The translations under genes were made by a program, and so were the position numbers. Below are positions 14,639-47,619 of a stretch of DNA of 64,000 bases, one piece after another. The notes under the pieces are model-generated. The model was not told the origin of the DNA and did no database searches. It saw nothing but the letters and a program-made list of their open reading frames with translations. Every line of letters starts with the position of its first letter. The stretch's first letter is position 1. Source of the DNA: a virus; IMG/VR virus record IMGVR_UViG_3300027782_000036; one strand, written 5' to 3'.

Positions 14639-17600
14639 ATGCCAGTCATAGAAAATTTAAGTTTAGCAAACACCTTTGGAGAATGGGTCAATATCACCAA
14701 TGATGCTGTTGATGCAATTAACACATTATATTTTGATAATTTTAATAAGCCGACAGGAACGTTATATTTAAGTGAACCAACAACAGGTTTAGTGGTTGCT
14801 AATAATTCTTTATTTCAAGGTTTAGTTCAAGTTGGCACTTCAGGTAGCATAGTATCTTATGGTCTGATTGAAGGTAAAGATAGTTTAGTTCTTTCAAATA
14901 CTAGTTCAAACAAAGTTGTTCTTACAGCAAATGGTATTGTTGAATTAATAGGTCCTAATGCTTCACTTAAAGTTTCTAATAATGCTATAATCTATGGTCG
15001 TTTAAACGTTGACAATATAGTTGCTAACACTATTACTGTTAAAAATTTCAATAATGATTTTTTAAATGCTGCTTTCAGTCAAGCCAACTCAGCAGCCTCT
15101 TTTGCTAATGGTGCTTTTACTAAAGCAAATACAACCAATGATTTAGCTTACTTAATTTATTCTTATGCTAATACTAGTTACACTCAAGCTAATAATGCGG
15201 CTAGTTTTGCTAATGGTGCTTTCACTAGAGCTAATACGACTAATGATTTAGCTTATATCATATATTCTTATGCTAATACTAGTTACACTCAAGCTAATAA
15301 TGCGGCTAGTTTTGCTAATGGTGCATTTAGTCGTGCCAATAGTGCTGCTTCATTTGCCAATGGTGCATTTACAACTGCTAACAATGCATTCAATGTAGCT
15401 AATGCAGCTTTCTTTCAAGCAAACAATGCATTCAATGTGACAAATGTAGTTTTTGGTGTTGCTAACAGTGCAGCTTCATTTGCTAACGGCGCTTTCGTAT
15501 CAGCTAACAGTGCAGCTTCATTTGCTAATGGTGCTTTTAATGCTGCTAATTCAGCAGCTTCATTTGCTAATGGTGCTTTCACTAAAGCTAATACGACTAA
15601 TGATTTAGCATACATCGTATATGCTTATGCTAATACAGGTTATGCTCAAGCCAATTCAGCAGCTTCATTTGCTAATGGTGTATTTACTACCGCTAATGCA
15701 GCTTTACCAAAATCAGGTGGAACATTAACAGGAGATATTACTGGTGCAAATGCTACATTTCAAAATATTTCTGCACAAGGTAATTTTACAATTAACGGCG
15801 TAACTGTTTATAACTCTGATGTATTTACATTAAATTCTGGTGCTGCAACTAATCAAAATGGTATATTCTCAAATTATAGACCTTCTGGTTCTTCTAATGC
15901 AGCTATTAGATGGAATGAATCTACCTTATCTTGGGGTATTAGAGATGTAAATAATACTGATACATCTACTGCTTATGCTAATGTTGTAACATCTAATACA
16001 ACATCATCAACAACACGTTCTGGTATTGTTCAATTAACTGATTCAATATCATCAACAAGCACAACTACAGCAGCAACACCTAATTCTGTTAAAACATCAT
16101 ATGATCTAGCACAAGGTTCTTTTAATCTCGCTAATACTTTGGTATATACATCAGGAGCATTTGATCGTGCTAACTCGGCCTATGCTCAAGCTAACTCAGC
16201 AGCCTCATTTGCTAACGGTGCATTTACAACCGCTAACTCAGCAGCCTCATTTGCTAACGGTGCTTTTGTTACTGCTAACAGTGCAGCTTCATTTGCTAAC
16301 GGTGCGTTTACTTTTGCTAATACAAGATATAGTGCATCAGGTGGTACTATCTCGGGTGATGTATCCGTAACAGGTAACTTAACAGTTAATGGTACAGCAA
16401 CATACATTTATTCTAAAGTAGTGGATATTAATGATTCATTAATTCATTTAGCTAATAATAATACTTCAAGTGATACTGTTGATATTGGTTTCTATGGAAC
16501 ATATAATACTGGTGGTTTTAACAGATATACTGGTTTGTTTAGAAAAGCAGCTGACAAATATTATTTGGTTCAAGCACTCACTACCGACCCATCACAAAAT
16601 ACTGTAACGTTTAATAATTTAAATCGATCAACCTTAGATGCAAACTTTACAGGTGGTACTGTTTCAGGCCTTTCATCTGCTATTCCTGTTGCTGACGGTG
16701 GTACAGGAACTACAACATCTACCGGTACAGGTTCGGTTGTATTACATACGGGTCCAGAACTTATTTCACCATCTATGTCTGGAATGCCTACTGCACCAAC
16801 TGCTGCAGCTGGTAATAATAGCACAATGGTGGCAACAACTGCATTTGTTCAAACTGCCGGCACCAATGTAATTGTTGCACCTTTCTTACAAGCTAACAAT
16901 TCATTTAATGTCGCTAACGCTTCATTTAATCAAGCAAATAATTCATTCAACGTAGCTAATGCTGCCTTTATTCAAGCTAACAATTCATTCAATGTAACTA
17001 ATGTTGCTTTCACTGCTGCTAATAGTGCAACTTCATTGATTAGAGGTTTTGGATTCTATACACAGAATGGTATAACTGCAAATACAGGTCCTGACGGAGT
17101 AAGATCAAGTAATAATGCTTTCATTGGATTAGCATCATCAGGTGTTTCTGTTGGCACATATGCTAATGCTAACACCATTTCTGTTGTTACCTATGATACG
17201 TATGGTCGTGCCACATATGCAGCTAACGTTCGTGTAGTTATCACATCATCACAAATTAGTGATTTATCAGCTACTATAACTCCACCTTTTGCACAAGCTA
17301 ATAATTCTTTTGCCCAAGCAAATAATTCATTCAACGTTGCTAATCTTGCATATACAGCAGCTAATGTAGCTTTTGGTCGAGTTTCAGTTACGGCAAATAC
17401 AGGCGACTTAATAGCTAATGGTATTAATACGGCAGTTGTTGGTAATGTAGTAATAGGTTTAGCAACAACTACTGTAGCTGCTGGCACATATGGTGGTACA
17501 TCACAAATTCCAGTAATTACAATTGATACTAAAGGTCGTGCTACATATGCAGCTAATGTCACCTTCTCTGGTGGTGCAACGATCACTGATGATATCACAA

Positions 17601-18010
17601 CAGATGCTACACGATATCCATTATTTGCTTCATCAACTTCTGGTACTTTATCGACTGCTTACACTTCATCTTCAGATTTAACTTATAATCCATCTACTGG
17701 TACTTTAAGTGCTGTAATCTTTACATCATTATCAGATAGAAGTGTTAAAGATAATATTCAAATTGTCACTGGTGCTTTAGATACTATTAAACAACTTGAG
17801 GGTGTATCATTTAATTGGAAAGAAAATGGTAACAAATCTTATGGTGTAATTGCTCAAGACATCGAACAAGTATTACCAGATATGGTACAAACTAATGATG
17901 CTGGTCTCAAGACTGTAGATTATCAAGCACTATCTGCTTTCTTAATTGAATCAATCAAAGAATTGAAAACAGAGATTGACACACTCAAAGAAAAGTTGTA
18001 TAATAAGTAG
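14639..18010 (+). CDS. Long fibre with Ala-Asn heptad shaft and C-terminal peptidase S74 intramolecular chaperone
   Basis: NTFGEW N-terminus, ANxA heptads, tail-fibre repeats GIVQLTDS...AATPNSVK and PTAPTAAAG...ATTAFV, S74 motif SDRSVKDNI...FNWK...GVIAQDIE. Confidence 0.85.
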   Translation: MPVIENLSLANTFGEWVNITNDAVDAINTLYFDNFNKPTGTLYLSEPTTGLVVANNSLFQGLVQVGTSGSIVSYGLIEGKDSLVLSNTSSNKVVLTANGIVELIGPNASLKVSNNAIIYGRLNVDNIVANTITVKNFNNDFLNAAFSQANSAASFANGAFTKANTTNDLAYLIYSYANTSYTQANNAASFANGAFTRANTTNDLAYIIYSYANTSYTQANNAASFANGAFSRANSAASFANGAFTTANNAFNVANAAFFQANNAFNVTNVVFGVANSAASFANGAFVSANSAASFANGAFNAANSAASFANGAFTKANTTNDLAYIVYAYANTGYAQANSAASFANGVFTTANAALPKSGGTLTGDITGANATFQNISAQGNFTINGVTVYNSDVFTLNSGAATNQNGIFSNYRPSGSSNAAIRWNESTLSWGIRDVNNTDTSTAYANVVTSNTTSSTTRSGIVQLTDSISSTSTTTAATPNSVKTSYDLAQGSFNLANTLVYTSGAFDRANSAYAQANSAASFANGAFTTANSAASFANGAFVTANSAASFANGAFTFANTRYSASGGTISGDVSVTGNLTVNGTATYIYSKVVDINDSLIHLANNNTSSDTVDIGFYGTYNTGGFNRYTGLFRKAADKYYLVQALTTDPSQNTVTFNNLNRSTLDANFTGGTVSGLSSAIPVADGGTGTTTSTGTGSVVLHTGPELISPSMSGMPTAPTAAAGNNSTMVATTAFVQTAGTNVIVAPFLQANNSFNVANASFNQANNSFNVANAAFIQANNSFNVTNVAFTAANSATSLIRGFGFYTQNGITANTGPDGVRSSNNAFIGLASSGVSVGTYANANTISVVTYDTYGRATYAANVRVVITSSQISDLSATITPPFAQANNSFAQANNSFNVANLAYTAANVAFGRVSVTANTGDLIANGINTAVVGNVVIGLATTTVAAGTYGGTSQIPVITIDTKGRATYAANVTFSGGATITDDITTDATRYPLFASSTSGTLSTAYTSSSDLTYNPSTGTLSAVIFTSLSDRSVKDNIQIVTGALDTIKQLEGVSFNWKENGNKSYGVIAQDIEQVLPDMVQTNDAGLKTVDYQALSAFLIESIKELKTEIDTLKEKLYNK
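15158..15324 (+). repeat. 105-nt-period tandem repeat (35 aa, five heptads) in the fibre shaft
   Basis: tattcttatgctaatactagttacactcaagctaataatgcggctagttttgctaatggtgc is identical at 15158 and 15263; a diverged third copy lies near 15560-15680. Confidence 0.85.
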
Positions 18011-18017
18011 ATAAATA
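18010..18017 (+). promoter_or_regulatory. Putative late promoter (GATAAATA) for glycosylation cluster 1
   Basis: NATAAATA directly upstream of the GAGGT RBS and the 18047 start. Confidence 0.55.
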
Positions 18018-18046
18018 AATTATATTATTTGAGAGGTAATTAATCC

Positions 18047-19651
18047 ATGTCTAAAGTGAAATTTCATACGGTTGATCAACCCGATTCAGACACAACCACC
18101 TTTGTATTATCATGTAATCGTCTTGATGTTCTAGACAAAACACTCCAATCGTTTTATGATACCAGAGACTATGTAACTAAAATGGTTATATTAGATGACT
18201 CAGCCGAGCCTGGTGTATTTGAAACTCTTGTTGAACGTTATGGTAAAGACTGTGATGTTATTTGTTTCCCACGTAATCGTTCACAATGGTTTGCCATGGA
18301 TTTTATGGTATCCTATTGTGATTCTGAATACATTTTCTATCTTGAAGATGATTGGGAACTCCGCCAGCCAGGTTATCTAAACAAATCAAAAGCTATTCTA
18401 CAAAAATACCGAGAAGTCGGTGTCGTTGATATCTCATGGAGAACGTTTGAGTTCCAAGGTATTGATTCATATGAAAAGAAACTTATCGATGGTGAATTCT
18501 TTTGGAAGAAACCATGGAAGATTACCGACAATCATGTAGCATGGCATCTATGGTGTGGCAGTCCTAATCTCAGACGTAGAGATGATCTTATTATGTTAGG
18601 TCGTGTAGAGAAGTGGCATAATGAATGGAACATTGATCGTAAGTTTACAGCATTAGGTTTCAAAGGTGTGTATCTTAATGGTGAATACGCAAGACATCTT
18701 GGAGATCATTGTTCTAAGATGGCTGGTCAAAGACCAGATGATTCTAAAACTCCATATGATTTTCTACCAGAAGAACTTAAAAGAAATCGTAGAGCACCTT
18801 ATATTAACTATAGGGAGATGGACTGGATCTATGAGTATCCTGCTGATGTAACATTAGTTACTATGGCTGTTGATATCTCTAGAGGTGATCGTGACTTTGA
18901 AGAACATTACATTAGAGGTCTTGATCAACTTCTTTCTGTTCGTAATCCTTTAGTTGTCTATGCTGATCCAAAATATCATGACTACATTAGAAATAAACGT
19001 AAAGAATTGAGTATTGCTACATCTAATAATCGTGTAGAGTGTAGATCATTGACATTAAGAGATTTAGAAACTAGAATACCTTTTAATGATATACAAAAAG
19101 TTATAACAGACACCAATTGGATTGATCAATCAGATTGGATTAAGAATTCACCTCTTATTAATCCTTATTATATACCACTCACTCTAATCAAGAATACAAT
19201 ACTTGAAGATGTTGCTGTTCAAAATCCATTGGGTTCAAAACGATTCTATTGGATTGATTCTGGTTTCTATAATAGCTTTGGTGTCACTGATCCAATCACC
19301 ACCTTCGACTTTCTAAAAATTACTAAAGATAATTTCTTACTTACATCTTATCCATATTCAACGAATTCAGAAATTCATGGACTTGATATTAAGTTTATGC
19401 AAGATACTATTGGTAAGAAACCGGAATATGTGTGTCGTGCTACAATCTTTGGTGGGACTAAAGATCAGATTCAAAAATTCAATGATAAATATTTTCAGTT
19501 AATGAGAAAGTCATTAGATGCTGGTCACATTGGAACAGAGGAAGCTTTGTTTACTATGGTTGAAATGATGTATCCAGATTTAGTCAAACGATATGTAATG
19601 CCTAATGGTGATATCAAAAATTATTTAATTAGTCTTAAAAAAGGTTTGTGA
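18047..19651 (+). CDS. Two-domain glycosyltransferase: GT-A (GT2-like) fused to HtrL/YibB-like domain
   Basis: N-half has VLSCNRLD, ILDDS and FYLEDDW (DxD-like); C-half has TLVT, FYWIDSG, EIHG, RATIFGG and GTEE, resembling HtrL/YibB. Confidence 0.7.
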   Translation: MSKVKFHTVDQPDSDTTTFVLSCNRLDVLDKTLQSFYDTRDYVTKMVILDDSAEPGVFETLVERYGKDCDVICFPRNRSQWFAMDFMVSYCDSEYIFYLEDDWELRQPGYLNKSKAILQKYREVGVVDISWRTFEFQGIDSYEKKLIDGEFFWKKPWKITDNHVAWHLWCGSPNLRRRDDLIMLGRVEKWHNEWNIDRKFTALGFKGVYLNGEYARHLGDHCSKMAGQRPDDSKTPYDFLPEELKRNRRAPYINYREMDWIYEYPADVTLVTMAVDISRGDRDFEEHYIRGLDQLLSVRNPLVVYADPKYHDYIRNKRKELSIATSNNRVECRSLTLRDLETRIPFNDIQKVITDTNWIDQSDWIKNSPLINPYYIPLTLIKNTILEDVAVQNPLGSKRFYWIDSGFYNSFGVTDPITTFDFLKITKDNFLLTSYPYSTNSEIHGLDIKFMQDTIGKKPEYVCRATIFGGTKDQIQKFNDKYFQLMRKSLDAGHIGTEEALFTMVEMMYPDLVKRYVMPNGDIKNYLISLKKGL

Positions 19652-20385
19652 TGTCCTCTTTGAGTTTTGTTCTATTTGGCTCTAATCAATTACAATCAGC
19701 TGATTTTGTTTTAGAGAATATTCGCAAACATTATCCTGATAATTATATTGCTTTACTTTCTGATTGTGGTGCCGATTATAGCAATCTATCTAAGAAATAC
19801 AATACAGAATACTTTTATTCTAAAAAGAAACTTAGTTATCCTGTTCAACCATTTGGTTGGAGAAAAGATAAAGTAATCGATTTTTTAGAACGACTATATA
19901 TAGCATGTCTGAGATGTAACACTACTCATATCATGTATGTTGAAGAAGATGTGATTGTATTTAAACAATTAGTAATACCAGATGATGCTGAAGTTATTGG
20001 ATTTAAAACATGTTATCCTGATGGCTCTAAATTCCCTAATGGATTTCCCGATGAGTTCATAAGAATCACCGAACAGTTTTCTGGTGTTAAACCAAATGTT
20101 ATTGGCTATGGCGCACAAGGTGGTGCAGTCTTAAAAGTTGATACATTCATAAACAACTTCTACAGAATTAAACAATTCTTATTAGATAATATGGATCATA
20201 TTCAAGACAATGTTTATCCAACAGCAGGCTGGATAGATTGTTTTCTAACTTGGTATTATCTATTATGTGGTAAAAAATATGTATTCAATCCGAATTACAT
20301 TGAAGTAAATGACCGTTTCGATTATAACAACCCACCAGCTCACGCTGAATTAGCAACACACTATCAAGGAAAATATGTAAAATGA
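19648..20385 (+). CDS. Putative GT-A fold glycosyltransferase
   Basis: NIRKHYPD...LLSDCG and HIMYVEEDV acidic motif; start overlaps the upstream stop (GTG 19648 or ATG 19651). Confidence 0.6.
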   Translation: MMSSLSFVLFGSNQLQSADFVLENIRKHYPDNYIALLSDCGADYSNLSKKYNTEYFYSKKKLSYPVQPFGWRKDKVIDFLERLYIACLRCNTTHIMYVEEDVIVFKQLVIPDDAEVIGFKTCYPDGSKFPNGFPDEFIRITEQFSGVKPNVIGYGAQGGAVLKVDTFINNFYRIKQFLLDNMDHIQDNVYPTAGWIDCFLTWYYLLCGKKYVFNPNYIEVNDRFDYNNPPAHAELATHYQGKYVK

Positions 20386-20942
20386 CCGACTTTATTGAAA
20401 AGATTAGAAATAGGAATATTGAATTAAAAATTAGACCAGAGTTCTTAGATCATTTACGTATATCGGAACACAAAGGTTGGTGGGTAAACACTAAAGGTGA
20501 CCACTATGCACTCTTATGTTGGATCTCAGAACAATTTAATAACACTACAATCTATGATGTTGGTACTTTCAGAGGTATGTCAGCACTAGCATTAGCAGCT
20601 AACCCTACAAATAAAGTTGTAACCTATGATATACATCCATGGCCTGATGATCGTATTCTTAATCCACCATCTAATATTGAATTCATTGTTGGTAATTTCT
20701 TTGAAGATAAAGACATTTTAAAATCACCACTCATTATGTTTGATGTTGATCCACATAATGGTATTATTGAAAGAGAATTTCTAAACTGGCTAGACGCAAA
20801 TGATTACAAAGGCATTGTATTCTTTGATGATATTCATTTAAATCCATCAATGCAATCTATTTGGGATTCTATTAATAAAGAAAAGTATGACTTAACAGAT
20901 TTAGGCCACTATTCTGGTTCAGGTATTGCAATTTATAATTAA
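20382..20942 (+). CDS. Class I SAM-dependent methyltransferase (Methyltransf_24-like)
   Basis: [18 protein letters not shown]-binding motif, VTYDI, DVDPH, FFDDIH; ATGA overlap. Confidence 0.75.
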
Positions 20943-20956
20943 TTCGGGAGTATATA

Positions 20957-22099
20957 ATGAGTGAAAAAATGACGTTTCATATCCTAGGTTTGCCACACAC
21001 AGTAACATCTAAAGAGTATGTAGCTTGTGCCTACACACAGAAAGTGTGGAAGTTTGGCAAGATGATGACTGAACGTGGTCATAAAGTAATACACTATGGT
21101 CATGAAGAATCTGATGTGCCATGTACCGAACATGTAACAGTCACTACTAATAAAGACCTAGAGATTGCTTATGGTAACTATGATTGGCGTAAGAACTTCT
21201 TTAAATTTTCTACAGGCGACCATGCTTATCAAGAGTTTTATAAGAACGCAATTCGTGAAGTTGGTCTTCGTAAACAACCAAAAGATTTCATTCTTCCATT
21301 TTGGGGATCAGGTACTAGACCAGTATGTGATGCTCATCCAGATTTAATCACTGTAGAACCTGGTATCGGTTATGCTGGTGGTCATTGGGCTAGATTTAAA
21401 ATTTTTGAATCATATGCTATCATGCACGCTTACTATGGTTTAACAGCGGTAGGAACTTGTAAGAATAACTTCTATGATGTTGTTATCCCCAATTACTTTG
21501 ATCCTGATGACTTTACCTTTGCACCTGAAACTAAGGAAGATTACTTCCTATTCTTAGGTCGAGTTTATGCCGGCAAAGGTGTTGATATTGCTGTTCAAGT
21601 CACAGAGAAGATTGGTGCTAAACTCAAGATTGCTGGACAAAATCCAGATAACACAAAGTTTCCACCTCATGTTGAATTTGTAGGTTATGCTGATGTAGAG
21701 AAACGTAGAGAACTTATGAGTAAAGCTAAAGCATCATTTGTGTGTTCAATGTATGTTGAACCATTTGGTGGTGTTCAAGTTGAAAATCTATTTTCCGGTA
21801 CACCAACAATTACTACAGATTGGGGTTCATTCACTGAGAATAATATTCATGGTGTAACTGGTTATCGTTGCAGAACTTTTGAAGAATTCTGTTGGGCTGC
21901 CAAGAATATCGATAAGATTAAACCACAAAATTGTCGTGATTGGGCTATGAATTTTTCACTCGACAAAGTGGCAAAGATGTATGAAGAATACTTTCAAGCT
22001 GTTTTAAATATCCATGGTAAAAAAGGATGGTATGAAGAGAATCCAGATAGAACGGATTTGAACTATGCTAGAAAATTATATCCTGGAACTGAACTATAA
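20957..22099 (+). CDS. GT-B glycosyltransferase, family 4-like
   Basis: [12 protein letters not shown] and EPFGGVQVE (EX7E) plus [14 protein letters not shown]. Confidence 0.85.
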
Positions 22100-22112
22100 C
22101 ACATATAATTCA

Positions 22113-22120
22113 TATAAATA
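22113..22120 (+). promoter_or_regulatory. T4 late promoter TATAAATA
   Basis: Exact consensus in the intergenic gap before 22156. Confidence 0.75.
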
Positions 22121-22155
22121 AGACCATATAAAAATCATTTATTTGAGTATAATAT

Positions 22156-22503
22156 ATGGCCACAGGTTATCAAGAACTATATCTAGAAAAAGGTGCTACA
22201 TTTAATGTTACTATTACATTAGATGCTGTTAATAATACCCCGTATAATTTGACAGGTTATACTGCAAATTCTCAGATGCGAACTTCATATTATTCAGCTA
22301 ATGCTGTAGCTACATTCTCCACTAGGATTGGAAATGATCCAACTAAAGGTCAAGTAATTCTTAATCTAACACATCAACAAACAGCTAATATATCTCCTGG
22401 AAGATATGTGTATGATATCTATATCTCCAATGGTTCAGATACGTGGCGTTCAAGAGTTTTAGAGGGAATTGTAAATGTCACTCCGTCTGTAACAGTATTT
22501 TAA
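22156..22503 (+). CDS. Small beta-sandwich virion adaptor protein (LxxxQGATF type)
   Basis: ELYLEKGATF...YNLTGYTANSQMR...GRYVYDI...RVLEGIVNVTPSVT, a family often found before fibre genes. Confidence 0.65.
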   Translation: MATGYQELYLEKGATFNVTITLDAVNNTPYNLTGYTANSQMRTSYYSANAVATFSTRIGNDPTKGQVILNLTHQQTANISPGRYVYDIYISNGSDTWRSRVLEGIVNVTPSVTVF

Positions 22504-22518: not shown

Positions 22519-23646
22519 ATGCCAACCGTAGCCAGTGATTTATATACCGTAAACACTATACAATATGGAAGTGGTGAACCTGGTGCTACAGGTATCCAAG
22601 GTGCTAGTGGTGCTACAGGTACTCAAGGTGCTTCTGGTTCAGGTGCTGCTGGTGCAACAGGTATTCAAGGCGCTTCAGGTGCTACAGGTACTCAAGGTGC
22701 TACCGGTGTCCAAGGTGCCTCCGGCATAGGTGAAACGGGTGCCTCTGGTGCTGATTCAACGGTTCCAGGTGCTACCGGTGTTCAAGGTGCTTCTGGCATA
22801 GGTGAAATAGGTGCTTCAGGTGCCGACTCAACAGTTCCTGGTGCTACTGGAGAACAAGGTGCTACAGGTGTAGGTTTAACAGGTGCAACTGGTGTTGGTG
22901 GTTCTGGTGCCACTGGTTTATCAGGTGCTACAGGCGTAGGTTTAACAGGTGCAACTGGTGTAAGTGTTACTGGTGCTTCGGGCATAGCAGGTGCTACAGG
23001 CGTAGGTTTAACAGGTGCAACCGGTGTGAGTGTTACTGGTGCTACTGGTTTTGCTGGTGCTACTGGTATTGGTGTGGCTGCAATAACAACATTTAGAACA
23101 TCATCAACAGATCAAGTTGTCGTAGAAACAATCAATGCATCAACACAAAGAAGTGTTAAGTTTGAAATGCAATCAAATACATCTTCACAATTTCAAGCAT
23201 CAGAATTAAGATTATTAGTAGATTTACCTAACATATATCTCACTGAATATGGATCAATAGGTGAATCACTAGGCACATTTAAGACATATTATTCCCCAGC
23301 ATCTAATGATTATTCTTCACCTTATATAAATAATGGTGGACTTTCTGTGTGGAATGGAACAACATTGACTATCTACACAATTCATAATGAAGTCATTCAA
23401 GGTTTATTTTCAATGTATGCCGGTGATACATTTACTTTTAATGGTGGGGCTGCAACCGCCACATTAAGTTCAGTATTTACAGAAGTTTCTACTGGAATTT
23501 ATGAAGCAACTACAGCTGAAAATAGATCACCTCCATTATTATTATCAAGAATACAATGGACAGGAACTGGTAATATTGAATTAAGATATACACCAGTTAA
23601 TGCAGTAACAACATTAAGATATATTAAGGCAGAAATATCTGTCTAA
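22519..23646 (+). CDS. Collagen-like fibre protein 1
   Basis: Interrupted GAT/GAS triplet tracts; C-terminal domain QRSVKFEMQ...LTEYG...LRYTP. Confidence 0.8.
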
Positions 23647-36418: not shown

Positions 36419-36449
36419 ATATATAATAAAAAAACTTAGGAAATAAAAT

Positions 36450-37091: not shown

Positions 37092-37094
37092 TCA

Positions 37095-39203: not shown

Positions 39204-39258
39204 ACTATGGCATATTTGAGACGCTGTTGCAATAAAAACACTAGCATAAGGAAAATAA

Positions 39259-42200
39259 ATGGCAACAATTAATAGAACCGTTGCATTTACATCAGGTACT
39301 AGCAGCTGGCAAGTTCCTACGGATTTTGTAAGTTTAGTTTCTATAGAGGCTATTGGTGCTGGTGGTGGATCTTCTACCGTAAATACTGGTAATGGTGGTG
39401 CTGGTGGTGGTGCTTATGCTAAAACAATTTCAGTCACAGGCTTTACAGTTGGTGCAACTCTTAATTATCAAGTAGGTGTTGGTGGTAGTGGAGCAATTGC
39501 CGCTACTGATACATGGGCTAACATAGCTTCAGCGGCCGCTCCTACATTAACAACTCAAGGTGTTTTAGCTAAAGCTGGTGGAAATTCAACCGGAGCATCT
39601 ATTACTCCTGGCGCCGGTGGATTAGCATCTGCCTCTGTAGGTACAACCAAATTTGATGGTGGTACAGGAGGAGCTGGATTTTCAACTGCAAATAACTCTG
39701 CTGCTGGTGGCGGCGGTGGTGCAGCAGGACCTAGTGGAGCTGGTGCAACTGGTGGTGCAGGTTCAGCAGCTGGCAACAGTGCAACTGGCGGCGGTGGTGG
39801 TGGTGCAAATGGAGGTACCGCTGGTACTGCCGGTGGTAGTGGTGGCGCTGGTGGATCTCCTGGTGGTGGAGCTGGTAATGCTGGAAATAGTAGTGCTGGT
39901 ACTACATCAACCATTTATACTATAGATGGAGTTGCATATGGTCCTGGTGGTGGCGGTGGTGGTGCCGGAACTAATGTTATAGGTATAAAAGGCACTGGAG
40001 GTGCTGGTGGTTCATATGGCGGTGGCGCTGGTGGAGGATCAGCTAACGTTTCAGGTGGCGGTGGTCTTATTTTAATTACTTATGTTTCAACTGTTGATCG
40101 TTACTGGGTAGGTGGTGCTGGAACTTGGTCTAGCACTAGTAGAACTAACTGGTCAGTTTCATCTGGAGGAGCATCCGGTGCTTTAGCTCCAACTAGTGAT
40201 GATGTTGTTTATTTTAATGGAAGTTCTGGATCGGGAACAGTTACATTAACAGGTGCCTTATATTGTAAAGGTTTAGTTACTACTGGATCATCGTTTACAT
40301 TTAGCAGCACAGGTACTATAGGTATTTATGGAAACCTAACTCTTTCAGCAACTACTGTATGGAGTGCTACAGGAGCCGTAACAATTGCTGGCACAGGTAC
40401 AATTTCTACAAACAGTATTTCTATGGCATCTCCTTTAACTATTGATGGTGTTGGAATTACAGCAACATTAGGTAGTAATTTTGTCACTACAGGAGCACTT
40501 ACTTTAACTAATGGTACTTTAAATGGAAGCACATTTAATGTATCCGCAAGCACATTCGCTTCTAGTAACAGCAATACTAGAACACTTACTATGGGTTCTG
40601 GCACATGGACATTATCTGGTACAGGCACTGTATGGAATACTGGTACTACAACAGGGCTTACATTTAGTTCTGGAACCACAAATATTATTTTGTCTGATAC
40701 TTCTACTACTGCAAGAACCTTTACACCTGGCTCCGGACAAACGTTTAATGAATTAACTATAGGTGGAACTACAGGAATATCCACTACAACTATTAGCGCT
40801 GGATGCACAATTACAACATTATCAAGCACTAAAACTGTAGCACACACTATTGTTATTACTGCTGGAACTACACTTACTTGCCCAAATTTTAATATTGATG
40901 GTACTTCTGGAAACATCTTTACTTTAAAATCGTCAAGCGCTTCAATAGCAACTTTATCTTCTGCAAACTCATTTACAACAAATTACACATATGTAACAAA
41001 CATAACACTATCTTCAGCAAACGGAACAGTTTCTTATGGACAACTTATTAGTTCAACTGGATGGCTTAATAATAATACTAGTTCAGTTCTAATTGTATTG
41101 TCTTCAGGCACTAGTTATTCTATTCCATCGAATTGGAATAATTCCAACAACACTATTCATCTTTTTGGTGGTGGTGGTGGCGGTGGTGGTGGTGCTACTT
41201 CTGGCACTGGCGCTGGCGGTGGCGGTGGTGGTGGAGGGTATACAAAAATTACTAATTTTGTATCGTCACCTTCAACGAGCATCACTTATGCAATAGGAGC
41301 GGCAGGTTCCGCAGGTTCTGGTACCGGTTCTGGCACTGCGGGTGGTACTGGTGGAACAACATCATGGAACTCTGGGGCATCTACAGCAGGTGGTGGTGGC
41401 GGAGGAGCTAGGGGTGGTACTGGCACTGGAGGCACTGCAGGTGTAGGCACTACATTTAACGGTGGAGCTGGCGGTTCAGGCCGATCAGGTGGAGGATCTA
41501 ACTACGGAGGTGGCGGCGGTGGTGCTGGCGGACCTCTAGGCGCTGGTGGTTCTGGTGGTAATGGCGTTGCAAGTCCAGGTTCTGGTGGTGGTAACGGAGG
41601 CGGTACTGCTGGTGGTACAGGAGCTACTGGTGGTAATAATGCACAAGGTTCTGGCGGTGGTGCTCTTTCTAGTGGTTCTGGATCTAATGGTGGCGGTGGT
41701 GGTCCAGCTAATGCCGGCTCAGGTGGAGGTGGTACCGGTGGAGATGGTATTGATATCTTAGATTATATTGGTGGCGGTGGCGGCGGTGGAGGTGGAGGCG
41801 GAGCCGCAGGTGGTGATGGTGGATCATACGGCGGTGGAGGCGGTGGAGGACCTAATTCTATTTTAGGTGGTGCTGCTGGAGGTGCTGGTAAAAGCGGTAT
41901 TATTATTATTAATTATTTTGCATTTGGCGCTGCCGATGCGTTTTCGGTTTCACCTTCTTCAGGTGCCATTGGAACTGTGGTTACAATATCTGGATCTTCA
42001 TTTAATTCAACATCAAGTGTAACTTTTGGTGGAGTATCAGCATCTTTTATAATTGTAGATGATTTTACAATTATCGCTACTGCACCTACACACAGTCTTG
42101 GTTCAAAAACAGTAGCAGTTACAAACTCGGCAGGTTCAGGAACAACATCTTCATTTACTTATCGAACACCAGGTAATTCAGGTTACAAATTCCCTATATT

Positions 42201-43383
42201 AAACTATGATGGTTCTGTATCAGGCACACTAGTAGACTTTGATGACATGTTTGTTCGAAAAGAATTATTCTTAGATGCTGGACTGTATGCGTGGGGATAT
42301 AATGCTAATGGTATGTTAGGTAATCAAAACACTACATATTACTCATCACCAGTTCAAGTAGGTACATTGACCAATTGGAAACAAGTAGGTGTTAGCCAAA
42401 GGCATACTGCAGCAGTTAAGACTGATGGATCATTATGGACATGGGGTGAAAATACACGTGGTGCATTAGGTGATGGTACTACCGTAGCTAAATCATCACC
42501 AGTTCAAGTAGGATCATCATACGATTGGTTACAAGTAACAGGTGGAGTTGATCAGGATGGTGGATTTGTTGGTTACACTTTAGCCACTAAGACAGATGGT
42601 ACTTTATGGAGTTGGGGTCATAATGCATATGGAGAGTTGGGTCTAAACAACAGAACATATTATTCATCACCAGTTCAAGTCGGTTCTTTAACTAATTGGA
42701 AGCAAGTTGTTGCGCCAAGTAATGGAGAACACGTTGCTGGAATTAAAACAGACGGTACATTATGGATGTGGGGCAGGAATGGCAGTGGCCAACTAGGTAA
42801 CGGTAATACGACAAATTATTCGTCACCAATTCAAATTGGAGCTTTAACTAATTGGAAACAAGTTGCTTGTGGTCAAGCTTTTTCTGCTGCTATCAAAACC
42901 GACGGAACATTATGGATGTGGGGTCAAAATGATCAAGGTCAACTAGGCAATGGTAATAGAACAAACTATCCATCACCAGTTCAAGTAGGTTCTTTAACTA
43001 ATTGGAAGCAAGTTGCTTGTGGGCTTCTATCAACAGCTGCTATTAAAACAGATGGTACATTATGGACATGGGGAAGTAATTCACGTGGTGCATTAGGTAA
43101 CGGTACTACCACATCTTATTCATCACCTATTCAAATTGGAGCTTTAACTAATTGGAAACAAGTTTCTGGCGGAGTTTATTTTTTTTCTATGGTTAAAACA
43201 GATGGAACTTTATGGGCTGTAGGTAGCAACACAGGAGATGGTGGTGTTAATACTGGAGTATTAGGTCAAAATAATCTCACAAACTATTCGTCACCCATTC
43301 AAGTTGGAGCATTAACTAATTGGAAACAAACAGAAACTGGAAGTTTTTCTTGTTTTGCTATATCTTCACCAGACTTGCCATAG
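39259..43383 (+). CDS. Multidomain putative adhesin C: two Gly-rich domains, beta-rich shaft, IPT/TIG-like domain, 7-repeat RCC1 propeller
   Basis: Two Gly-rich domains, RYWVGG...NWS region, SVSPSSG...VTISGSSF...VTFGG (IPT/TIG-like), seven RCC1 repeats. Confidence 0.82.
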   Translation: MATINRTVAFTSGTSSWQVPTDFVSLVSIEAIGAGGGSSTVNTGNGGAGGGAYAKTISVTGFTVGATLNYQVGVGGSGAIAATDTWANIASAAAPTLTTQGVLAKAGGNSTGASITPGAGGLASASVGTTKFDGGTGGAGFSTANNSAAGGGGGAAGPSGAGATGGAGSAAGNSATGGGGGGANGGTAGTAGGSGGAGGSPGGGAGNAGNSSAGTTSTIYTIDGVAYGPGGGGGGAGTNVIGIKGTGGAGGSYGGGAGGGSANVSGGGGLILITYVSTVDRYWVGGAGTWSSTSRTNWSVSSGGASGALAPTSDDVVYFNGSSGSGTVTLTGALYCKGLVTTGSSFTFSSTGTIGIYGNLTLSATTVWSATGAVTIAGTGTISTNSISMASPLTIDGVGITATLGSNFVTTGALTLTNGTLNGSTFNVSASTFASSNSNTRTLTMGSGTWTLSGTGTVWNTGTTTGLTFSSGTTNIILSDTSTTARTFTPGSGQTFNELTIGGTTGISTTTISAGCTITTLSSTKTVAHTIVITAGTTLTCPNFNIDGTSGNIFTLKSSSASIATLSSANSFTTNYTYVTNITLSSANGTVSYGQLISSTGWLNNNTSSVLIVLSSGTSYSIPSNWNNSNNTIHLFGGGGGGGGGATSGTGAGGGGGGGGYTKITNFVSSPSTSITYAIGAAGSAGSGTGSGTAGGTGGTTSWNSGASTAGGGGGGARGGTGTGGTAGVGTTFNGGAGGSGRSGGGSNYGGGGGGAGGPLGAGGSGGNGVASPGSGGGNGGGTAGGTGATGGNNAQGSGGGALSSGSGSNGGGGGPANAGSGGGGTGGDGIDILDYIGGGGGGGGGGGAAGGDGGSYGGGGGGGPNSILGGAAGGAGKSGIIIINYFAFGAADAFSVSPSSGAIGTVVTISGSSFNSTSSVTFGGVSASFIIVDDFTIIATAPTHSLGSKTVAVTNSAGSGTTSSFTYRTPGNSGYKFPILNYDGSVSGTLVDFDDMFVRKELFLDAGLYAWGYNANGMLGNQNTTYYSSPVQVGTLTNWKQVGVSQRHTAAVKTDGSLWTWGENTRGALGDGTTVAKSSPVQVGSSYDWLQVTGGVDQDGGFVGYTLATKTDGTLWSWGHNAYGELGLNNRTYYSSPVQVGSLTNWKQVVAPSNGEHVAGIKTDGTLWMWGRNGSGQLGNGNTTNYSSPIQIGALTNWKQVACGQAFSAAIKTDGTLWMWGQNDQGQLGNGNRTNYPSPVQVGSLTNWKQVACGLLSTAAIKTDGTLWTWGSNSRGALGNGTTTSYSSPIQIGALTNWKQVSGGVYFFSMVKTDGTLWAVGSNTGDGGVNTGVLGQNNLTNYSSPIQVGALTNWKQTETGSFSCFAISSPDLP

Positions 43384-43403
43384 ATCAGTTTTTCTGTTAT
43401 ACT
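43375..43403 (+). promoter_or_regulatory. Sigma70-type promoter TTGCCA-17-TATACT with extended -10 TG
   Basis: -35 at 43375-43380, TG at 43395-43396, -10 at 43398-43403, upstream of the AGGAG RBS and TTG start at 43437. Confidence 0.65.
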
Positions 43404-43436
43404 ATATAATGGTCTAAATTAATTAGGAGTATTGAA

Positions 43437-44831
43437 TTGAGTCGCATTTTAGAATATGAATTTGGCAAAAATGAACCTATTGCTCAGGTTGTTGAATTCT
43501 TAGAAAAAACAAATAACGAAAAACTGGCATCACAACTTCTTGATGTGTATGTTAAGTATTCAAATCAGCTAGAACAATTCAATCTTCTCACCAAACTTTA
43601 TCATGACATTCGTGATAATGCCAAAGCAGAAAAACTTGGCTTAAAAGTTTTAGAGATGGCACCTAGCGAAGAAGCAAAATACAATGTTCGTGCTAATCTT
43701 GCCAAGATGTTTAATCTAATGAACTCACCAGAGAAAGCATTAGAACATATCTCAATCAATCGTCAATTAACACCAAACGATCCTGATACATTATTAGAAA
43801 CTGTATTCTCACTTTATCTTCTTAATCGTAAAGCTGAAGCAGAAGTCATTCTTCGTGACCTCAAAAAGAATCAACATCTATTACCTACACAAAAACTTAA
43901 AGACTTGGTAGACTTCAATCTTGGTACCTATAATATGGAACAAGGTAAGTTTCTAGAAGGTCTTGCTGGGTTTCTATTGAACACCAAGAAGTTAGAGTTA
44001 TGGTTCTCGACTAGAGAGTTACCATACAAATATTGGAACGGTGAAATTATTCCAGGTAAAACGATCATCATGTTTATGGAAGGTGGTGGTATCGGTGATG
44101 AGATGATTGCTGTTCGATTTATGGATCACATCAAAGCCAAAGGCATGAGACCAGTATTCTATACAGGCCGAAAAGATATGTATAACATATTCAACCGTTG
44201 TGGTTATGAAACAGTATTAAATACTGATGCTATGCCACAAGATTCTATGTGGATATATGCGATGCACGTGCCATTAGCATTACAACTCAATGAACAAGAT
44301 GTTAAACGAACTGATCCATATCTTTTCCCATCACAACAAGCCATCGATAAGTTTGCTGATATGAAACAATCTAAGAAGTTTAAGATTGGTGTTCGTTGGC
44401 AAGGTAATGCAAAGAACGAAAGAGATTTACATAGACAAGTTAAACTTGATGATGTGATGACTATGTTGAAAGATGTTTATGGTGATACAGTAGAATATTA
44501 TTCATTACAGATAGAAGACACTGATGGAATGGAACGTTATCCAGAACTCATAGATATATCAGATAGAATCAAATCTTATGATGATACATTTGGATTATTA
44601 CAGAATTTAGATTTGGTGGTAACATCATGCACCTCTGTGTTACATGCAGCTGCTCTAACAGGAACAGAAACACTTGGACTTATTCCAATCTCTGCTTACT
44701 TCACTTGGTTGACTCCATGTCCAAATAGAACAACAACTTGGTATGGTGATAATCTAAAACTATTCAGACAAGTGACGCCTAAAAAATGGGACGAACCAAT
44801 TTCAAAGATGAAAGAATACTTATTAAAATGA
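43437..44831 (+). CDS. TPR-like helical domain + GT-B (GT9-like) glycosyltransferase
   Basis: Helical repeat N-terminus; EGGGIGDEM, KIGVRWQGN, YSLQ, LDLVVTSCTSVLHAAA, WY...LFRQ...W motifs. Confidence 0.75.
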   Translation: MSRILEYEFGKNEPIAQVVEFLEKTNNEKLASQLLDVYVKYSNQLEQFNLLTKLYHDIRDNAKAEKLGLKVLEMAPSEEAKYNVRANLAKMFNLMNSPEKALEHISINRQLTPNDPDTLLETVFSLYLLNRKAEAEVILRDLKKNQHLLPTQKLKDLVDFNLGTYNMEQGKFLEGLAGFLLNTKKLELWFSTRELPYKYWNGEIIPGKTIIMFMEGGGIGDEMIAVRFMDHIKAKGMRPVFYTGRKDMYNIFNRCGYETVLNTDAMPQDSMWIYAMHVPLALQLNEQDVKRTDPYLFPSQQAIDKFADMKQSKKFKIGVRWQGNAKNERDLHRQVKLDDVMTMLKDVYGDTVEYYSLQIEDTDGMERYPELIDISDRIKSYDDTFGLLQNLDLVVTSCTSVLHAAALTGTETLGLIPISAYFTWLTPCPNRTTTWYGDNLKLFRQVTPKKWDEPISKMKEYLLK

Positions 44832-45619
44832 AACTTGATGTAATTCTTAGAACATGTAAAAAATCTACTCTTGAAAATAATTTAAAAGATAAATCTCCAC
44901 AATATCATAGAATTTGTGGTGATGATAGAGAAAAGATGATATTTAGATGTATCAAATCTTTAATTAAATCAATTTCTAAGTCAGAACATGATATTAAATT
45001 AACCGTTTTAGATGATAATTCTGATGTTAATTTTCTAATAAAATTAGATAAACTATTGTCATCATGTAGTAAAAGTGTAGATTTAATTCAATTAGATGAA
45101 TCTGGATTTAATAATTCAGCGTATCAGCAATTTAAATTGGCATCTGAATGTAAAGATTTGGTTTATACCGTTGAAGATGATTATCTACATGAAGAAGATG
45201 CTATTGATAACATGATTGTAGCTTATAATTATTTTTTTAGTGTATTTAAATTAGGTACAGTTATATTTCCTTTTGATTGTCCTTTTAGATATGAATCCGG
45301 TAAAGAAGAACATACATTATTATTACATGATGGTACAAGATATTGGAGACAAGTTAAACATACTTCATATACAATATTAACACATAGTTCTATTTTTAAA
45401 AAACATTTAGATGTATTTTCTAAACTAGCTTTAGAGTATCCTAAAGTGAATGAAGAACACACAATAAATAAATTGTATAAATCTGTAATATCAAATGAAG
45501 GTGAGTTATGTGTTTTTAATCCTATTCCATCTGTAGCATATCATCTTTCTTATCAAGAACCTGTATCAATAAAAACAACACATTTAAATTGGAAAAATCT
45601 TTGGGATAATTATGAATAA
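44828..45619 (+). CDS. Putative GT-A fold glycosyltransferase
   Basis: VILRTC, VLDDNSD, YTVEDDYLH; the probable start is the ATGA overlap at 44828 rather than 44786. Confidence 0.7.
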   Translation: MKLDVILRTCKKSTLENNLKDKSPQYHRICGDDREKMIFRCIKSLIKSISKSEHDIKLTVLDDNSDVNFLIKLDKLLSSCSKSVDLIQLDESGFNNSAYQQFKLASECKDLVYTVEDDYLHEEDAIDNMIVAYNYFFSVFKLGTVIFPFDCPFRYESGKEEHTLLLHDGTRYWRQVKHTSYTILTHSSIFKKHLDVFSKLALEYPKVNEEHTINKLYKSVISNEGELCVFNPIPSVAYHLSYQEPVSIKTTHLNWKNLWDNYE

Positions 45620-46163
45620 AATTAAAAGAAAACTTAGAGAGTTGGTAGAATTGCCATCAGATATTAATCAACACTTATATAATCTTATGGGTTATGCAGA
45701 AGGTTGTGACCATATTACAGAGATGGGTGTTCGTGGTGTTGTTTCTACTTGGGCTTTTCTGGCTGCTAATCCTAAAAAGTTTGTAGGTATTGATATTCTA
45801 GATTGTCCTGTTGATGAATCTAAACAGTTTGCTGAAGAGGCTGGTATTGAATATCAGTTTATCAAAGCAGACACAATTGATCCTAATTTTGAAATAGAAG
45901 AAACAGACTTTCTATTCATCGACACTTTACATTCATACACTCAACTCAAACAAGAATTGGCAAAACATGCCAGTAAAGTAAAACAATATATTGGCTTTCA
46001 TGACACAACAACATTTGGTTTTCAAAATGAACCTGGTGTAACGACTACACCATATTCCGGTTTACGACCAGCAATCATGGAGTTTTTAGAAACACATCCG
46101 GAATGGGTATTTCAAAATACTTGGGACCACAATAACGGTGTTACAATACTGAAACGTAAATGA
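45612..46163 (+). CDS. Class I SAM-dependent methyltransferase (Methyltransf_24-like)
   Basis: ITEMGVRGVVST, GIDI, FLFIDTLH, FHDT, NNGVTIL. Confidence 0.75.
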   Translation: MNKIKRKLRELVELPSDINQHLYNLMGYAEGCDHITEMGVRGVVSTWAFLAANPKKFVGIDILDCPVDESKQFAEEAGIEYQFIKADTIDPNFEIEETDFLFIDTLHSYTQLKQELAKHASKVKQYIGFHDTTTFGFQNEPGVTTTPYSGLRPAIMEFLETHPEWVFQNTWDHNNGVTILKRK

Positions 46164-46891
46164 ATCTATTCTTAGTCACGTCTGCCATATCAACAAACTA
46201 TAGTCTTACATCTAAAGAAGATAGATTAAAAGAAACTATCGATACTGCTTTAAGTATTAAACAGTATGCACCTGATTCTAAAATCATTCTTGTAGAAGGT
46301 GGTAAACCTTTACCTCAAGAGATGAAAGACCAATTAAGTATCTTTGATGAAATATTTGATTTCTCTGACCACGCAGTTCCAAAGATGACACAGAGTGATG
46401 CTCAGCTAGCCGTAGATAACGTTGGTCATTCTATTAAGAGTGCTGGTGAAGCCTATTTACTTAAAGAAGCACTCGCTTTACTTGAAGATAAGTATGATCG
46501 TATATTCAAATTAAGTGGTCGTTATAGACTAACAGAACGATTTAATATTAATGACCATATGCACAAAGATAAGTTTGTGTTTCTACCAAAAGCACCTACA
46601 CAAAAAACAAAAATGGTAGATGCCAATGGTCAAGAAGTCGTAACAAAAACATCGAGTGACTTTTCTCCATGGAGATATGAAACAACATTTTATTCTTTTG
46701 ACAATGTACCAAAAGCGAAGATGACATTTGATTACATATTCAATTCATTGGTAGAAGTGTATTCGGAAAGTAATTACATAGACATAGAAACGGCAACGTA
46801 TTTGACAATCAATAAAGAAGACGTGATTGAGGTGCCGGTGATTGGCTTAACAGGAACTTTAGGTATGGATAATAGGAGTATTGATAAATGA
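46160..46891 (+). CDS. Hypothetical protein, possible divergent glycosyltransferase (paralogue 1)
   Basis: FLVTSAI...IILVEGG...RIFKLSGRY...YIDIE; lies in the GT operon. Confidence 0.5.
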   Translation: MNLFLVTSAISTNYSLTSKEDRLKETIDTALSIKQYAPDSKIILVEGGKPLPQEMKDQLSIFDEIFDFSDHAVPKMTQSDAQLAVDNVGHSIKSAGEAYLLKEALALLEDKYDRIFKLSGRYRLTERFNINDHMHKDKFVFLPKAPTQKTKMVDANGQEVVTKTSSDFSPWRYETTFYSFDNVPKAKMTFDYIFNSLVEVYSESNYIDIETATYLTINKEDVIEVPVIGLTGTLGMDNRSIDK

Positions 46892-47619
46892 GTAATATCT
46901 TTTTAGTGACATCAGCCATTCATGGACCTGGTGGTATGAGTGGACAATTGTCTAGTGATCAACGTATTATGCAAACAGTGAATACGGCTATCAGTATTCG
47001 TAAACATATACCAGACGCTAAAATCTATTTACTTGAAGGTGGTATTATGCCACTTAACATACAGATTAGGCAGATGTTTCTGATGCACTATGATGATATA
47101 TTAGATTACTCTATGTCTGAATTTATTCAATTTGCTCATCGCCAAAGAGATGTTAATAGACAAGAGATTACTGTCATTAAAGGTCCTTGTGAGTCTTATA
47201 TGTTAAGAGAAACTTGTAAGATTTTAACCACAACATTACAAGATAGAATCTTTAAGATTTCTGGTCGATATGAATTGTCTGATGAGTTCAATCTACAAGC
47301 ACATAATGTTCCGGGTAAGTATGTCTTTAAAACCAAAGATGAATGTCTACCATGGTATAAAGATGAAACTAAACCAAACTATTCACCATATCAATATAAG
47401 ACAAGGTTATATTCATTTTGTGGTTCATTAAAAGATATGGCTATCGTTAATTATGATAAGACAATGAATGGTATTTTAGACCTATATGCTAAGAATGATT
47501 ATATTGATATTGAACATATGACTTATCTGACTATAAATCCATCACTTATTCAAGAGATTTCACCTGTTGGATTGACTGGTTCTTTTGCAGAAGTGCCAGA
47601 TTCTATAATCAAAGAATAA
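46888..47619 (+). CDS. Hypothetical protein, possible divergent glycosyltransferase (paralogue 2)
   Basis: FLVTSAI...IYLLEGG...RIFKISGRY...YIDIE; ATGA overlap with paralogue 1. Confidence 0.5.
   Translation: MSNIFLVTSAIHGPGGMSGQLSSDQRIMQTVNTAISIRKHIPDAKIYLLEGGIMPLNIQIRQMFLMHYDDILDYSMSEFIQFAHRQRDVNRQEITVIKGPCESYMLRETCKILTTTLQDRIFKISGRYELSDEFNLQAHNVPGKYVFKTKDECLPWYKDETKPNYSPYQYKTRLYSFCGSLKDMAIVNYDKTMNGILDLYAKNDYIDIEHMTYLTINPSLIQEISPVGLTGSFAEVPDSIIKE

Follow-up and report, generated by a model that had tools for sequence, protein, structure and literature searches.

The 64,000-nucleotide stretch of virus DNA analysed here (IMG/VR record IMGVR_UViG_3300027782_000036; the window, in what follows, is this whole 64-kb stretch) shows a variable fibre block in which ten fibre, adhesin and adaptor genes are encoded together with glycosyltransferase (GT) and methyltransferase genes; two enzyme clusters enclose nine of the ten. 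This count, taken from a first-pass annotation made from the sequence, agrees with the gene layout and the Pfam matches (Table 1). O-glycosylation of the fibres is the best reading of the block, and we judge it moderately probable. The block would carry two separate cytoplasmic protein-glycosylation modules, with the acceptors, sugars and benefit that we infer here. Module A (cluster 1, 18047-22099), containing GT2-HtrL, the product of open reading frame (ORF) 19648, a methyltransferase and a GT4 enzyme, would build a short, partly O-methylated glycan on the Thr or Ser at the Y position of Gly-Ala-Thr/Ser triplets in four proline-free collagen-like fibres, drawing on host nucleotide sugars and S-adenosylmethionine (SAM). 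This glycan would substitute for hydroxyproline, stabilising and hydrating the triple helix and shielding the stalk. Module B (cluster 2, 43437-47619), containing a tetratricopeptide repeat protein with a GT9-like fold (TPR-GT9), a GT2-like protein, a methyltransferase and two GT-A-fold paralogues, would decorate the RCC1-propeller fibre proteins, and its TPR domain would recruit the protein substrate. The evidence is stronger for module A than for module B. The first-pass annotation described the two clusters as bracketing the fibres; by comparison with related loci, this arrangement is not a conserved unit. The clusters are mobile modules independent of one another, and each goes with a single class of fibre: Thr-rich proline-free collagens and RCC1 propellers, respectively.

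Module A and the collagen-like fibres

The genes encoding GT2-HtrL (ORF 18047) and GT4 (ORF 20957) form a pair in 42 IMG/VR loci. The GT2-HtrL relatives range from 45 to 97% identity, and the paired proteins are usually 75-85% identical to those of the window; neck and sheath proteins of the same loci are 30-55% identical. Several carriers show 57-79% identity in GT2-HtrL versus 26-48% in TerL, and therefore the cassette moves horizontally. The TerL tree requires at least five gains or losses of the pair.

Contigs of at least 93 kb were compared, eight of them pair-bearing and fetched via GT2-HtrL, and 19 pair-less and fetched via TPR-GT9. Collagen genes were found in all eight pair-bearing contigs versus seven of the 19 pair-less ones. 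Triplets were counted in six of the eight (G001, G004, G005, G007, G008 and G009; G006 nearly duplicates G001, and G010 was left uncounted), and all six show collagens dominated by GAT, GST or GAS, with Thr at 36-64% of Y positions. The seven pair-less collagen contigs show mostly GXQ triplets (Gln at Y 67-91%), with one contig of the GYS/GIS/GWS type and one of a mixed GSQ/GYT type. The pair-less sisters of pair-bearing lineages in the TerL tree (G012, G014 and G018) are devoid of GAT collagen. A crude Fisher test gives p of about 3e-6 per contig and 1e-4 per lineage, values uncorrected for contig selection and with two contigs of the reverse survey, G041 and G062, counted as GT4-positive.

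In this reverse survey contigs were fetched solely by a (GAT)4 DNA pattern. G041 and G062, which are high-GC and non-T4-like, each have a GT4 gene (33-34% identity) that shares its strand with a GAT/GPT collagen gene and is 2-4 kb away from it; in G058 a GT4 gene of 66-67% identity is 6 kb away from such a gene. The GT4 gene of the cultured cyanophage S-CAM7 (77% identity) is located directly after two GAT-rich collagen-like genes, gp014 and gp015, and is followed by a 2-oxoglutarate (2OG)-Fe(II) oxygenase gene and a tail-fibre gene. The idea that GAT collagen always needs this GT4 was ruled out, as 38 of 41 GAT-collagen records do not contain it. The survey of co-occurrence between GAT collagens and GTs, which the first-pass annotation had proposed and which was run in part, supports a link of the GT4 cassette to GAT-type collagens across independent lineages. 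Of all the results, this co-variation with Thr or Ser at the Y position discriminates best, since stalks are not the tips that bind receptors.

The four collagen-like genes of the window (best Pfam Collagen E-value 2.5e-65) show 109 GAT and 49 GAS triplets, which are most of the total; Thr occupies 43% of the Y positions, Pro 1% of the X positions, and proline is about 1%. The first-pass annotation had pointed to structural proteins rich in Thr, Ser and Asn. The richness is real, with 28-36% Ser+Thr+Asn in the fibres and 15-21% in the enzymes, but it is ordinary fibre composition and no specific evidence for glycosylation, because baseplate and sheath proteins reach 25-30%. The window collagens are unusual in their GAT/GAS dominance and about 1% proline, not in Ser/Thr/Asn richness.

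As in the BclA/BclA3 type, Gly-X-Thr/Ser repeats adjoin a GT gene: cluster 1 stops 57 nt before the adaptor and collagen genes. In vitro, SgtA of Clostridioides difficile, encoded beside bclA3, adds O-linked N-acetylglucosamine to Thr in GPT collagen repeats, and it accepts Ser as well (PMC7157674). SgtA-BclA3 and Bacillus anthracis BclA share with module A the gene layout of a GT gene adjoining a collagen-like gene with Gly-X-Thr repeats (PMC7157674; PMC8968730); they differ in that the bacterial proteins are on the spore surface and have proline-rich GPT repeats, whereas the repeats here are GAT and belong to a virion. The GT4-collagen co-variation, which recurs in independent lineages and with distant GT4 homologues, parallels the proven SgtA-BclA3 case.

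In most relatives, the GT4 protein bears a C-terminal SAM methyltransferase domain. The methyltransferase of the ORF 45612 type, from module B, is fused to GT2 elsewhere, as in the 430-aa protein of locus L016, which consists of a GT2 domain (8e-8) and this domain. The fused methyltransferase domains of relatives score well (Methyltransf_23, 1e-10; Methyltransf_24, 4e-19). From these GT-methyltransferase fusions, the methyltransferases are argued to act on sugars. Viral GTs joined to a sugar methyltransferase are also found in giant viruses, chlorovirus PBCV-1 A064R being a GT-GT-methyltransferase. Mimivirus L230 modifies collagen (cited in PMC8968730); the residue glycosylated in mimivirus is hydroxylysine and not Thr. 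These are eukaryotic viruses, and the sequence relationship to the phage enzymes is limited to fold.

Neither a hydrophobic segment nor a signal-like N-terminus was found in the nine enzymes of the two modules (maximum 19-residue Kyte-Doolittle mean at most 1.49), and therefore all nine would work in the cytoplasm, where fibres fold. Genes for nucleotide-sugar synthesis or DNA modification were not found among the window ORFs by Pfam and PHROG scans, as the first-pass annotation had stated. NTP_transferase-family (sugar-nucleotidyltransferase) genes are also absent from the genomes of five relatives, some of which have only a sugar epimerase (a single one in G001), and therefore the sugar donors would be mostly host-made.

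Two of the four enzymes of cluster 1 have family assignments above Pfam cut-offs. The N-terminal domain of ORF 18047 belongs to GT2 (PF00535, 26.1 versus a cut-off of 23.3 bits) and shows an LEDD motif, and its residues 267-514 belong to the HtrL/YibB family (PF09612, 46.9 versus 24.1 bits); since it reaches 54 bits versus 265 at the NCBIfam equivalog cut-off, it belongs to the family without being a YibB orthologue. ORF 20957 belongs to GT4 (PF00534, 55.4 versus 26.4 bits) and is 75-77% identical to GTs of S-CAM7 and ACG-2014f. The GT2+HtrL and GT4 calls of the first-pass annotation therefore stand, its methyltransferase call (ORF 20382) corresponds to a sub-threshold match, and ORF 19648, a GT-A in that annotation, is unassigned and a possible GT-A by motif order only. 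ORF 19648 has no Pfam, PDB or PHROG match, and a Pfam scan of 15 homologues yielded nothing useful. Its motif order is in register with the GT2 domain of ORF 18047, with a non-significant alignment (hhalign probability 1.6%), and hhalign of its family against the GT-A paralogues of cluster 2 was also non-significant. The methyltransferase-like proteins of ORFs 20382 and 45612 show a conserved E.G...G.S motif. PDB sequence and profile searches gave nothing or insignificant matches for ORFs 19648, 20382, 45612, 46160 and 44786. Another group of T4-like contigs (loci L041, L042, L044 and L045) encodes a 261-aa GT2 domain alone, 58-60% identical and without HtrL; this gene has gp15 on one side and the small terminase on the other, where the structural module is most conserved.

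Module B and the RCC1-propeller proteins

The TPR-GT9 family has at least 584 IMG/VR members, and loci were counted among the 80 best (32-63% identity). An RCC1 gene is located at most three genes upstream of TPR-GT9 in 48 of the 80 loci, and a GT-A paralogue at most three genes downstream in 36. The recurring order in these loci is S74 fibre, RCC1, DUF4376, RCC1, TPR-GT9, one ORF and the GT-A paralogue, often with a further RCC1 gene a few ORFs beyond. Cyanophage S-SRM01, whose RCC1 proteins are gp335, gp337 and gp344, keeps this order and then shows genes encoding a 2OG-Fe(II) oxygenase, a sulfotransferase, a GT and a sugar epimerase; in other relatives, sulfotransferases, GT2-methyltransferase fusions and an FkbM methyltransferase are encoded as well. 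The loci with the oxygenase, sulfotransferase and FkbM genes are L046 (S-SRM01 gp338-gp349), L115 (11319-21248) and L052 (7901-8674). By their position beside RCC1 and TPR-GT9, the 2OG oxygenases and sulfotransferases point to hydroxylation and sulfation as possible further modifications of fibre or glycan. Strong RCC1 matches were found in 15 of 19 TPR-GT9 contigs, and many weaker candidates in two more; among ten long contigs fetched independently of TPR-GT9, RCC1 was present solely in the one that contains TPR-GT9.

The three propeller genes of the window have Pfam RCC1 E-values from 1e-56 to 2.5e-65. Alignment of the blades (34301-43383) shows that each has a Ser/Thr-rich strand of nearly invariant sequence (consensus S-T-P-V-T-T), with GGTNWKQVS after it; should the propellers be substrates of module B, the candidate attachment sites are these repeated strands with their many hydroxyl groups. 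The predicted complex of TPR-GT9 with the propeller of ORF 39259 scored 0.00, which speaks neither for nor against binding. Mentions of "RCC1" with prasinoviruses in the literature were discarded, as they are culture-collection numbers and not RCC1 proteins.

The first-pass annotation had called a TPR-GT-B protein, a GT-A, a methyltransferase and two GT-like paralogues in cluster 2. The first and the last two are confirmed by AlphaFold2 (AF2) models and VIA comparisons; the GT-A (ORF 44786) and methyltransferase (ORF 45612) calls are weaker, with sub-threshold Pfam matches. The model of ORF 43437 shows a predicted GT9-like GT-B fold with an N-terminal Gly-Asp motif: residues 202-464 match 3tov (GT9, VIA Z 17.1), WaaF (15.6), TibC (15.6) and WaaC (15.1). 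At the sequence level, neither PF01075 nor any other Pfam or NCBIfam family matches ORF 43437. GGGIGD and TSCTS..H are conserved in the family, with G218, G220 and D221 invariant, and D221 may be the equivalent of the catalytic Asp. The TPR profile matches CTPR proteins at 2e-5, and the top Foldseek matches are XcOGT, SPINDLY (SPY) and OGT. In its modelled layout, a TPR array followed by a C-terminal GT-B domain, ORF 43437 resembles the OGT/SPY/FlmG type, with a putative protein acceptor bound via the TPR; FlmG is a TPR-GT-B protein O-glycosyltransferase. It differs from OGT in that TM-scores are about 0.3 and the catalytic domain is GT9-like, not GT41. TibC, a cytoplasmic enzyme that glycosylates an adhesin, shares the GT9 fold, and heptosyltransferases of lipopolysaccharide (LPS) match ORF 43437 equally well.

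Among the other enzymes of cluster 2, the ORF 44786 family has invariant DD.S and EDD motifs, and its top PDB profile matches are GT25 and SpsA at an E-value of about 0.04. ORFs 46160 and 46888 are 36% identical (E 2e-42) and do not have a canonical DxD motif; VIA Z is 11-13 with GT6, GT8 and GlyE, and about 11 with nucleotidyltransferases; the PBCV-1 GT structure 2p6w is among their GT-A matches (Z 11).

A split of function was considered, in which module A glycosylates the collagens and module B acts on a host glycan or as an assembly factor of the RCC1 fibres. This would accord with the equal closeness of LPS heptosyltransferases to the GT9 fold and with the kinds of support available, substrate chemistry for module A and neighbourhood and architecture for module B. 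We consider it improbable: the invariant GGGIGD and TSCTS..H motifs argue for an enzyme over a pure chaperone, and further GT-A, sulfotransferase and 2OG-oxygenase genes group with TPR-GT9 beside the RCC1 genes.

Some relatives show in-frame stop codons. The TPR-GT9 contig of locus L279 (G026, 276 kb, with terminal repeats) has five TAG codons in the TerL frame, which suggests a jumbo phage with amber-codon reassignment. In-frame TGA codons are found once each in the TPR-GT9 gene of G001 and the TerL gene of G010, and twice in a ThyA-like gene of G024.

Fibres, host envelope or DNA as substrate

The same enzymes could instead remodel the host envelope. Soluble GTs and methyltransferases, acting from the cytoplasmic side, would alter the LPS core, the O-chain or some other surface glycan, so that superinfection is blocked or progeny are kept from re-adsorbing to debris, and they would co-vary with fibre type since they mask the receptor bound by the fibre. 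This is the published interpretation for fibre-region GTs of pelagimyophages and cyanomyophages: those of the fibre region (HRC) were read as host O-chain modifiers preventing co-infection (Zaragoza-Solas et al., 2020, PMC7029224), with similar reasoning in PMC12801897. We regard it as rather unlikely here. It leaves the link of GT4 to the triplet chemistry of collagen stalks unexplained, a TPR fused to the GT9 domain suggests that the partner is a protein, and Pfam detected no initiating transferase, flippase, polymerase or Gtr-type membrane protein among these soluble enzymes. The Gtr seroconversion systems are alike in that phage GTs alter the host O-antigen, the receptor of the same phage; however, Gtr proteins are integral membrane proteins of temperate phages, whereas the enzymes here lack hydrophobic segments and are in a lytic T4-like layout. 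GtrA/GtrB/GtrC-like membrane proteins were found neither by Pfam nor by hydropathy, and the system is not of the Gtr type.

Several points weigh against fibre glycosylation, and some of them favour envelope remodelling directly. HtrL/YibB, GT9, GT4 and GT2 are classic LPS families, and the GT9 fold matches WaaC and WaaF at Z 15-16. Jumbo-size relatives have the pair outside the fibre block, among non-structural genes and about 24 kb from the collagen gene. The association of RCC1 with TPR-GT9 is weakened because a receptor-masking enzyme would co-vary with the receptor-binding protein too. Co-transfer of adjoining genes can imitate functional coupling. Small phages commonly encode GAT/GPT collagens but lack this GT4, which was found in none of eight essentially complete (98-100%) such records below 62 kb. 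Thr is the commonest Y residue in bacterial collagens and is common at Y in unglycosylated ones (PMC8968730). A glycan on virion proteins of this phage group is itself something we infer from genes.

Both cassettes are also preceded by host-type promoter-like sites (Table 1), whose early expression would suit remodelling of the host surface; it is compatible too with enzymes made ready ahead of the fibres. Perfect 12/12 sigma-70 sites are found on the + strand of the window only before cluster 1 and at 62117-62145, before uvsY, which suggests that a few strong promoters of host type are embedded within the late region. Among relatives with at least 75% identity, a site matching at least 10 of 12 positions is located upstream of GT2-HtrL in 19 of 23. 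ATAAATA, the core of the T4 late promoter, has 17 copies on the + strand versus two on the - strand, ten of the 17 at most 70 nt upstream of starts, and none in the gap upstream of cluster 2. Purely late expression of cluster 1 from its ATAAATA was dropped as a candidate after the perfect sigma-70 site was found.

Early expression would also fit DNA hypermodification, in which the GTs would glycosylate hydroxymethylated pyrimidines of phage DNA and thereby evade restriction, as in T4 and other phages. Such activity is known for phage GTs (Pyle 2024, as cited in PMC12619734), and divergent ThyA-family (PF00303) genes are present in G001 and G004. However, a gene of this ThyA/hydroxymethylase family is absent from the complete pair-bearing genome G005, and also from G007 and G008; mainly because of the complete genome we hold this explanation to be very improbable. 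The TPR fusion, the GT-methyltransferase fusions and the co-variation with fibre type are moreover unexpected for DNA enzymes, and the GT genes are placed in the structural module.

Fibre glycosylation agrees with what is expected genetically of virion glycosylation, since the GTs are encoded with, and co-vary with, the proposed acceptor genes. In mycobacteriophages, phage GTs near structural genes O-glycosylate virion proteins (Freeman 2023, via PMC12619734), the targets described in that source being C-terminal extensions of capsid and tail-tube proteins of actinobacteriophages; the proposed targets here differ, being collagen-like and RCC1 fibres of T4-like phages, and methyltransferases are involved. 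The first-pass annotation had proposed that the phage glycosylates and O-methylates its own fibres: this is supported in part, the survey by the link of the GT4 cassette to GAT-type collagens and the fusions by pointing to methylated sugars, and modification of the host O-chain still rivals it.

We propose tentatively that horizontally mobile "writer plus fibre" modules are found in abundant aquatic T4-like phages as well as in some jumbo and other large phages: GT2-HtrL/GT4-methyltransferase for GAT collagens and TPR-GT9 for RCC1, the latter toolkit joined in relatives by a 2OG oxygenase and a sulfotransferase. The presence of GTs in the fibre region is by itself not new, because it was published for pelagimyophages and cyanomyophages, and the question is the substrate. 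The pelagimyophage HRC is alike in having several GTs among tail-fibre genes between baseplate and neck in marine T4-like phages (PMC7029224); that report differs in describing no fibre-type link, no GT-methyltransferase fusions and no TPR-GT9/RCC1 synteny. What would be new is that, in T4-like and other large phages from water, given enzyme cassettes are paired in modular fashion with given fibre chemistries. Among aquatic viruses, the T4-like myoviruses that infect cyanobacteria, SAR11 and freshwater bacteria rank with the most abundant, and their fibre-region sugar enzymes have so far been filed as host-LPS "auxiliary" genes. If the proposal is true, stability and host range are set in part by a phage-encoded post-translational glyco-code on host-recognition fibres. 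Predictions of host range that use only the fibre sequence would then miss a layer, phage-made glycans would determine in part how stable virions are and how grazers or antibodies recognise them, and proline-free collagens would gain a plausible stabilising mechanism. The same modules are found in cultured phages, GT4 with GAT collagens in S-CAM7 and ACG-2014f and TPR-GT9 with RCC1 in S-SRM01, where the question is testable.

Gene layout of the window

All ORFs of at least 100 aa that were read as genes are on the + strand; short minus-strand ORFs nested in larger genes were also listed and treated as spurious. The variable fibre block is located between the baseplate and neck genes, and a single fibre gene (14639-18010) is upstream of cluster 1. 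The block is followed by genes for neck and sheath-stabiliser proteins (gp13, gp14 and gp15-like), the two terminase subunits (small, then large), sheath, tube and portal, and after these the prohead protease, scaffold, major capsid protein, UvsY and a helicase.

Table 1. Features of the fibre block and its edges in the window.
Position	Strand	Feature	Basis
1-14408	+	Baseplate wedge proteins	T4-type structural module
14639-47619	+	Variable fibre block	Between baseplate and neck genes
14639-18010	+	Tail fibre, phage fibre repeat and C-terminal S74 intramolecular chaperone	Peptidase_S74 5e-15, Phage_fiber_2 5e-12
17976-18004	+	Sigma-70-type site, perfect TTGACA-17-TATAAT, before cluster 1	12/12 match
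18011-18017	+	T4-late-promoter-like ATAAATA before cluster 1	Motif
18047-19651	+	Two-domain GT: N-terminal GT2 (GT-A), C-terminal HtrL/YibB-like	PF00535 26.1 bits, PF09612 46.9 bits
19648-20385	+	245-aa protein, possible GT-A by motif order only	SD.G, EED; invariant E99-E100-D101
20382-20942	+	Methyltransf_24-like class I SAM methyltransferase (weak)	PF13578 6e-5, 24.3 vs 26.3 cut-off bits
20957-22099	+	GT4 (GT-B) glycosyltransferase	PF00534 7e-15; phrog_3408 3e-206
22156-22503	+	LtfC-like beta-sandwich adaptor	PF23926 3e-5, below cut-off
22519-23646	+	Collagen-like fibre gene 1	Pfam Collagen
23712-25970	+	Collagen-like fibre gene 2	Pfam Collagen
26012-29509	+	Collagen-like fibre gene 3	Pfam Collagen
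29553-34301	+	Collagen-like fibre gene 4, S74 chaperone at end	Pfam Collagen
34301-36418	+	Gly-rich protein, C-terminal seven-blade RCC1 propeller	Pfam RCC1
36450-37091	+	DUF4376 protein	DUF4376 2e-8
37095-39203	+	Gly-rich protein, C-terminal seven-blade RCC1 propeller	Pfam RCC1
39259-43383	+	Gly-rich protein, C-terminal seven-blade RCC1 propeller	Pfam RCC1
43375-43403	+	Sigma-70-type site, extended -10 (TTGCCA-17-TG.TATACT), before cluster 2	10/12 plus TG; 34 nt before start
43437-44831	+	TPR superhelix (~14-185) and GT9-fold GT-B domain (~202-464)	AF2 pLDDT 91.8
44786-45619	+	Probable GT-A (GT2-like) glycosyltransferase	PF00535 1.3e-3, 19.2 bits, below cut-off
45612-46163	+	Methyltransf_24-like methyltransferase (weak)	PF13578 2.5e-3, 19.1 vs 26.3 cut-off bits
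46160-46891	+	GT-A-fold paralogue 1, 243 aa	AF2 pLDDT 93
46888-47619	+	GT-A-fold paralogue 2, 243 aa	AF2 pLDDT 93
47665-48444	+	gp13-like neck protein, downstream edge of the block	phrog_211 2e-41

The G+C content of the window is about 33%. In sheath-terminase DNA, the nearest isolates are Pelagibacter phage HTVC008M and cyanophages P-SSM2 and S-SRM01, at about 67-70% identity; when isolates were searched with cluster 2 DNA, the neck gene was the sole match. Because of this low DNA identity, the source phage is taken to be a divergent, uncultured aquatic T4-like myovirus. After the baseplate wedge genes, an ORF of 2340 aa is located at 7386-14408, with a homologue in locus L004 that is 76% identical. 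A second tail-tube-like gene (61547-62128; phrog_45, 1.6e-28) is located after the major capsid gene, the main tube gene being at 54305-54844.

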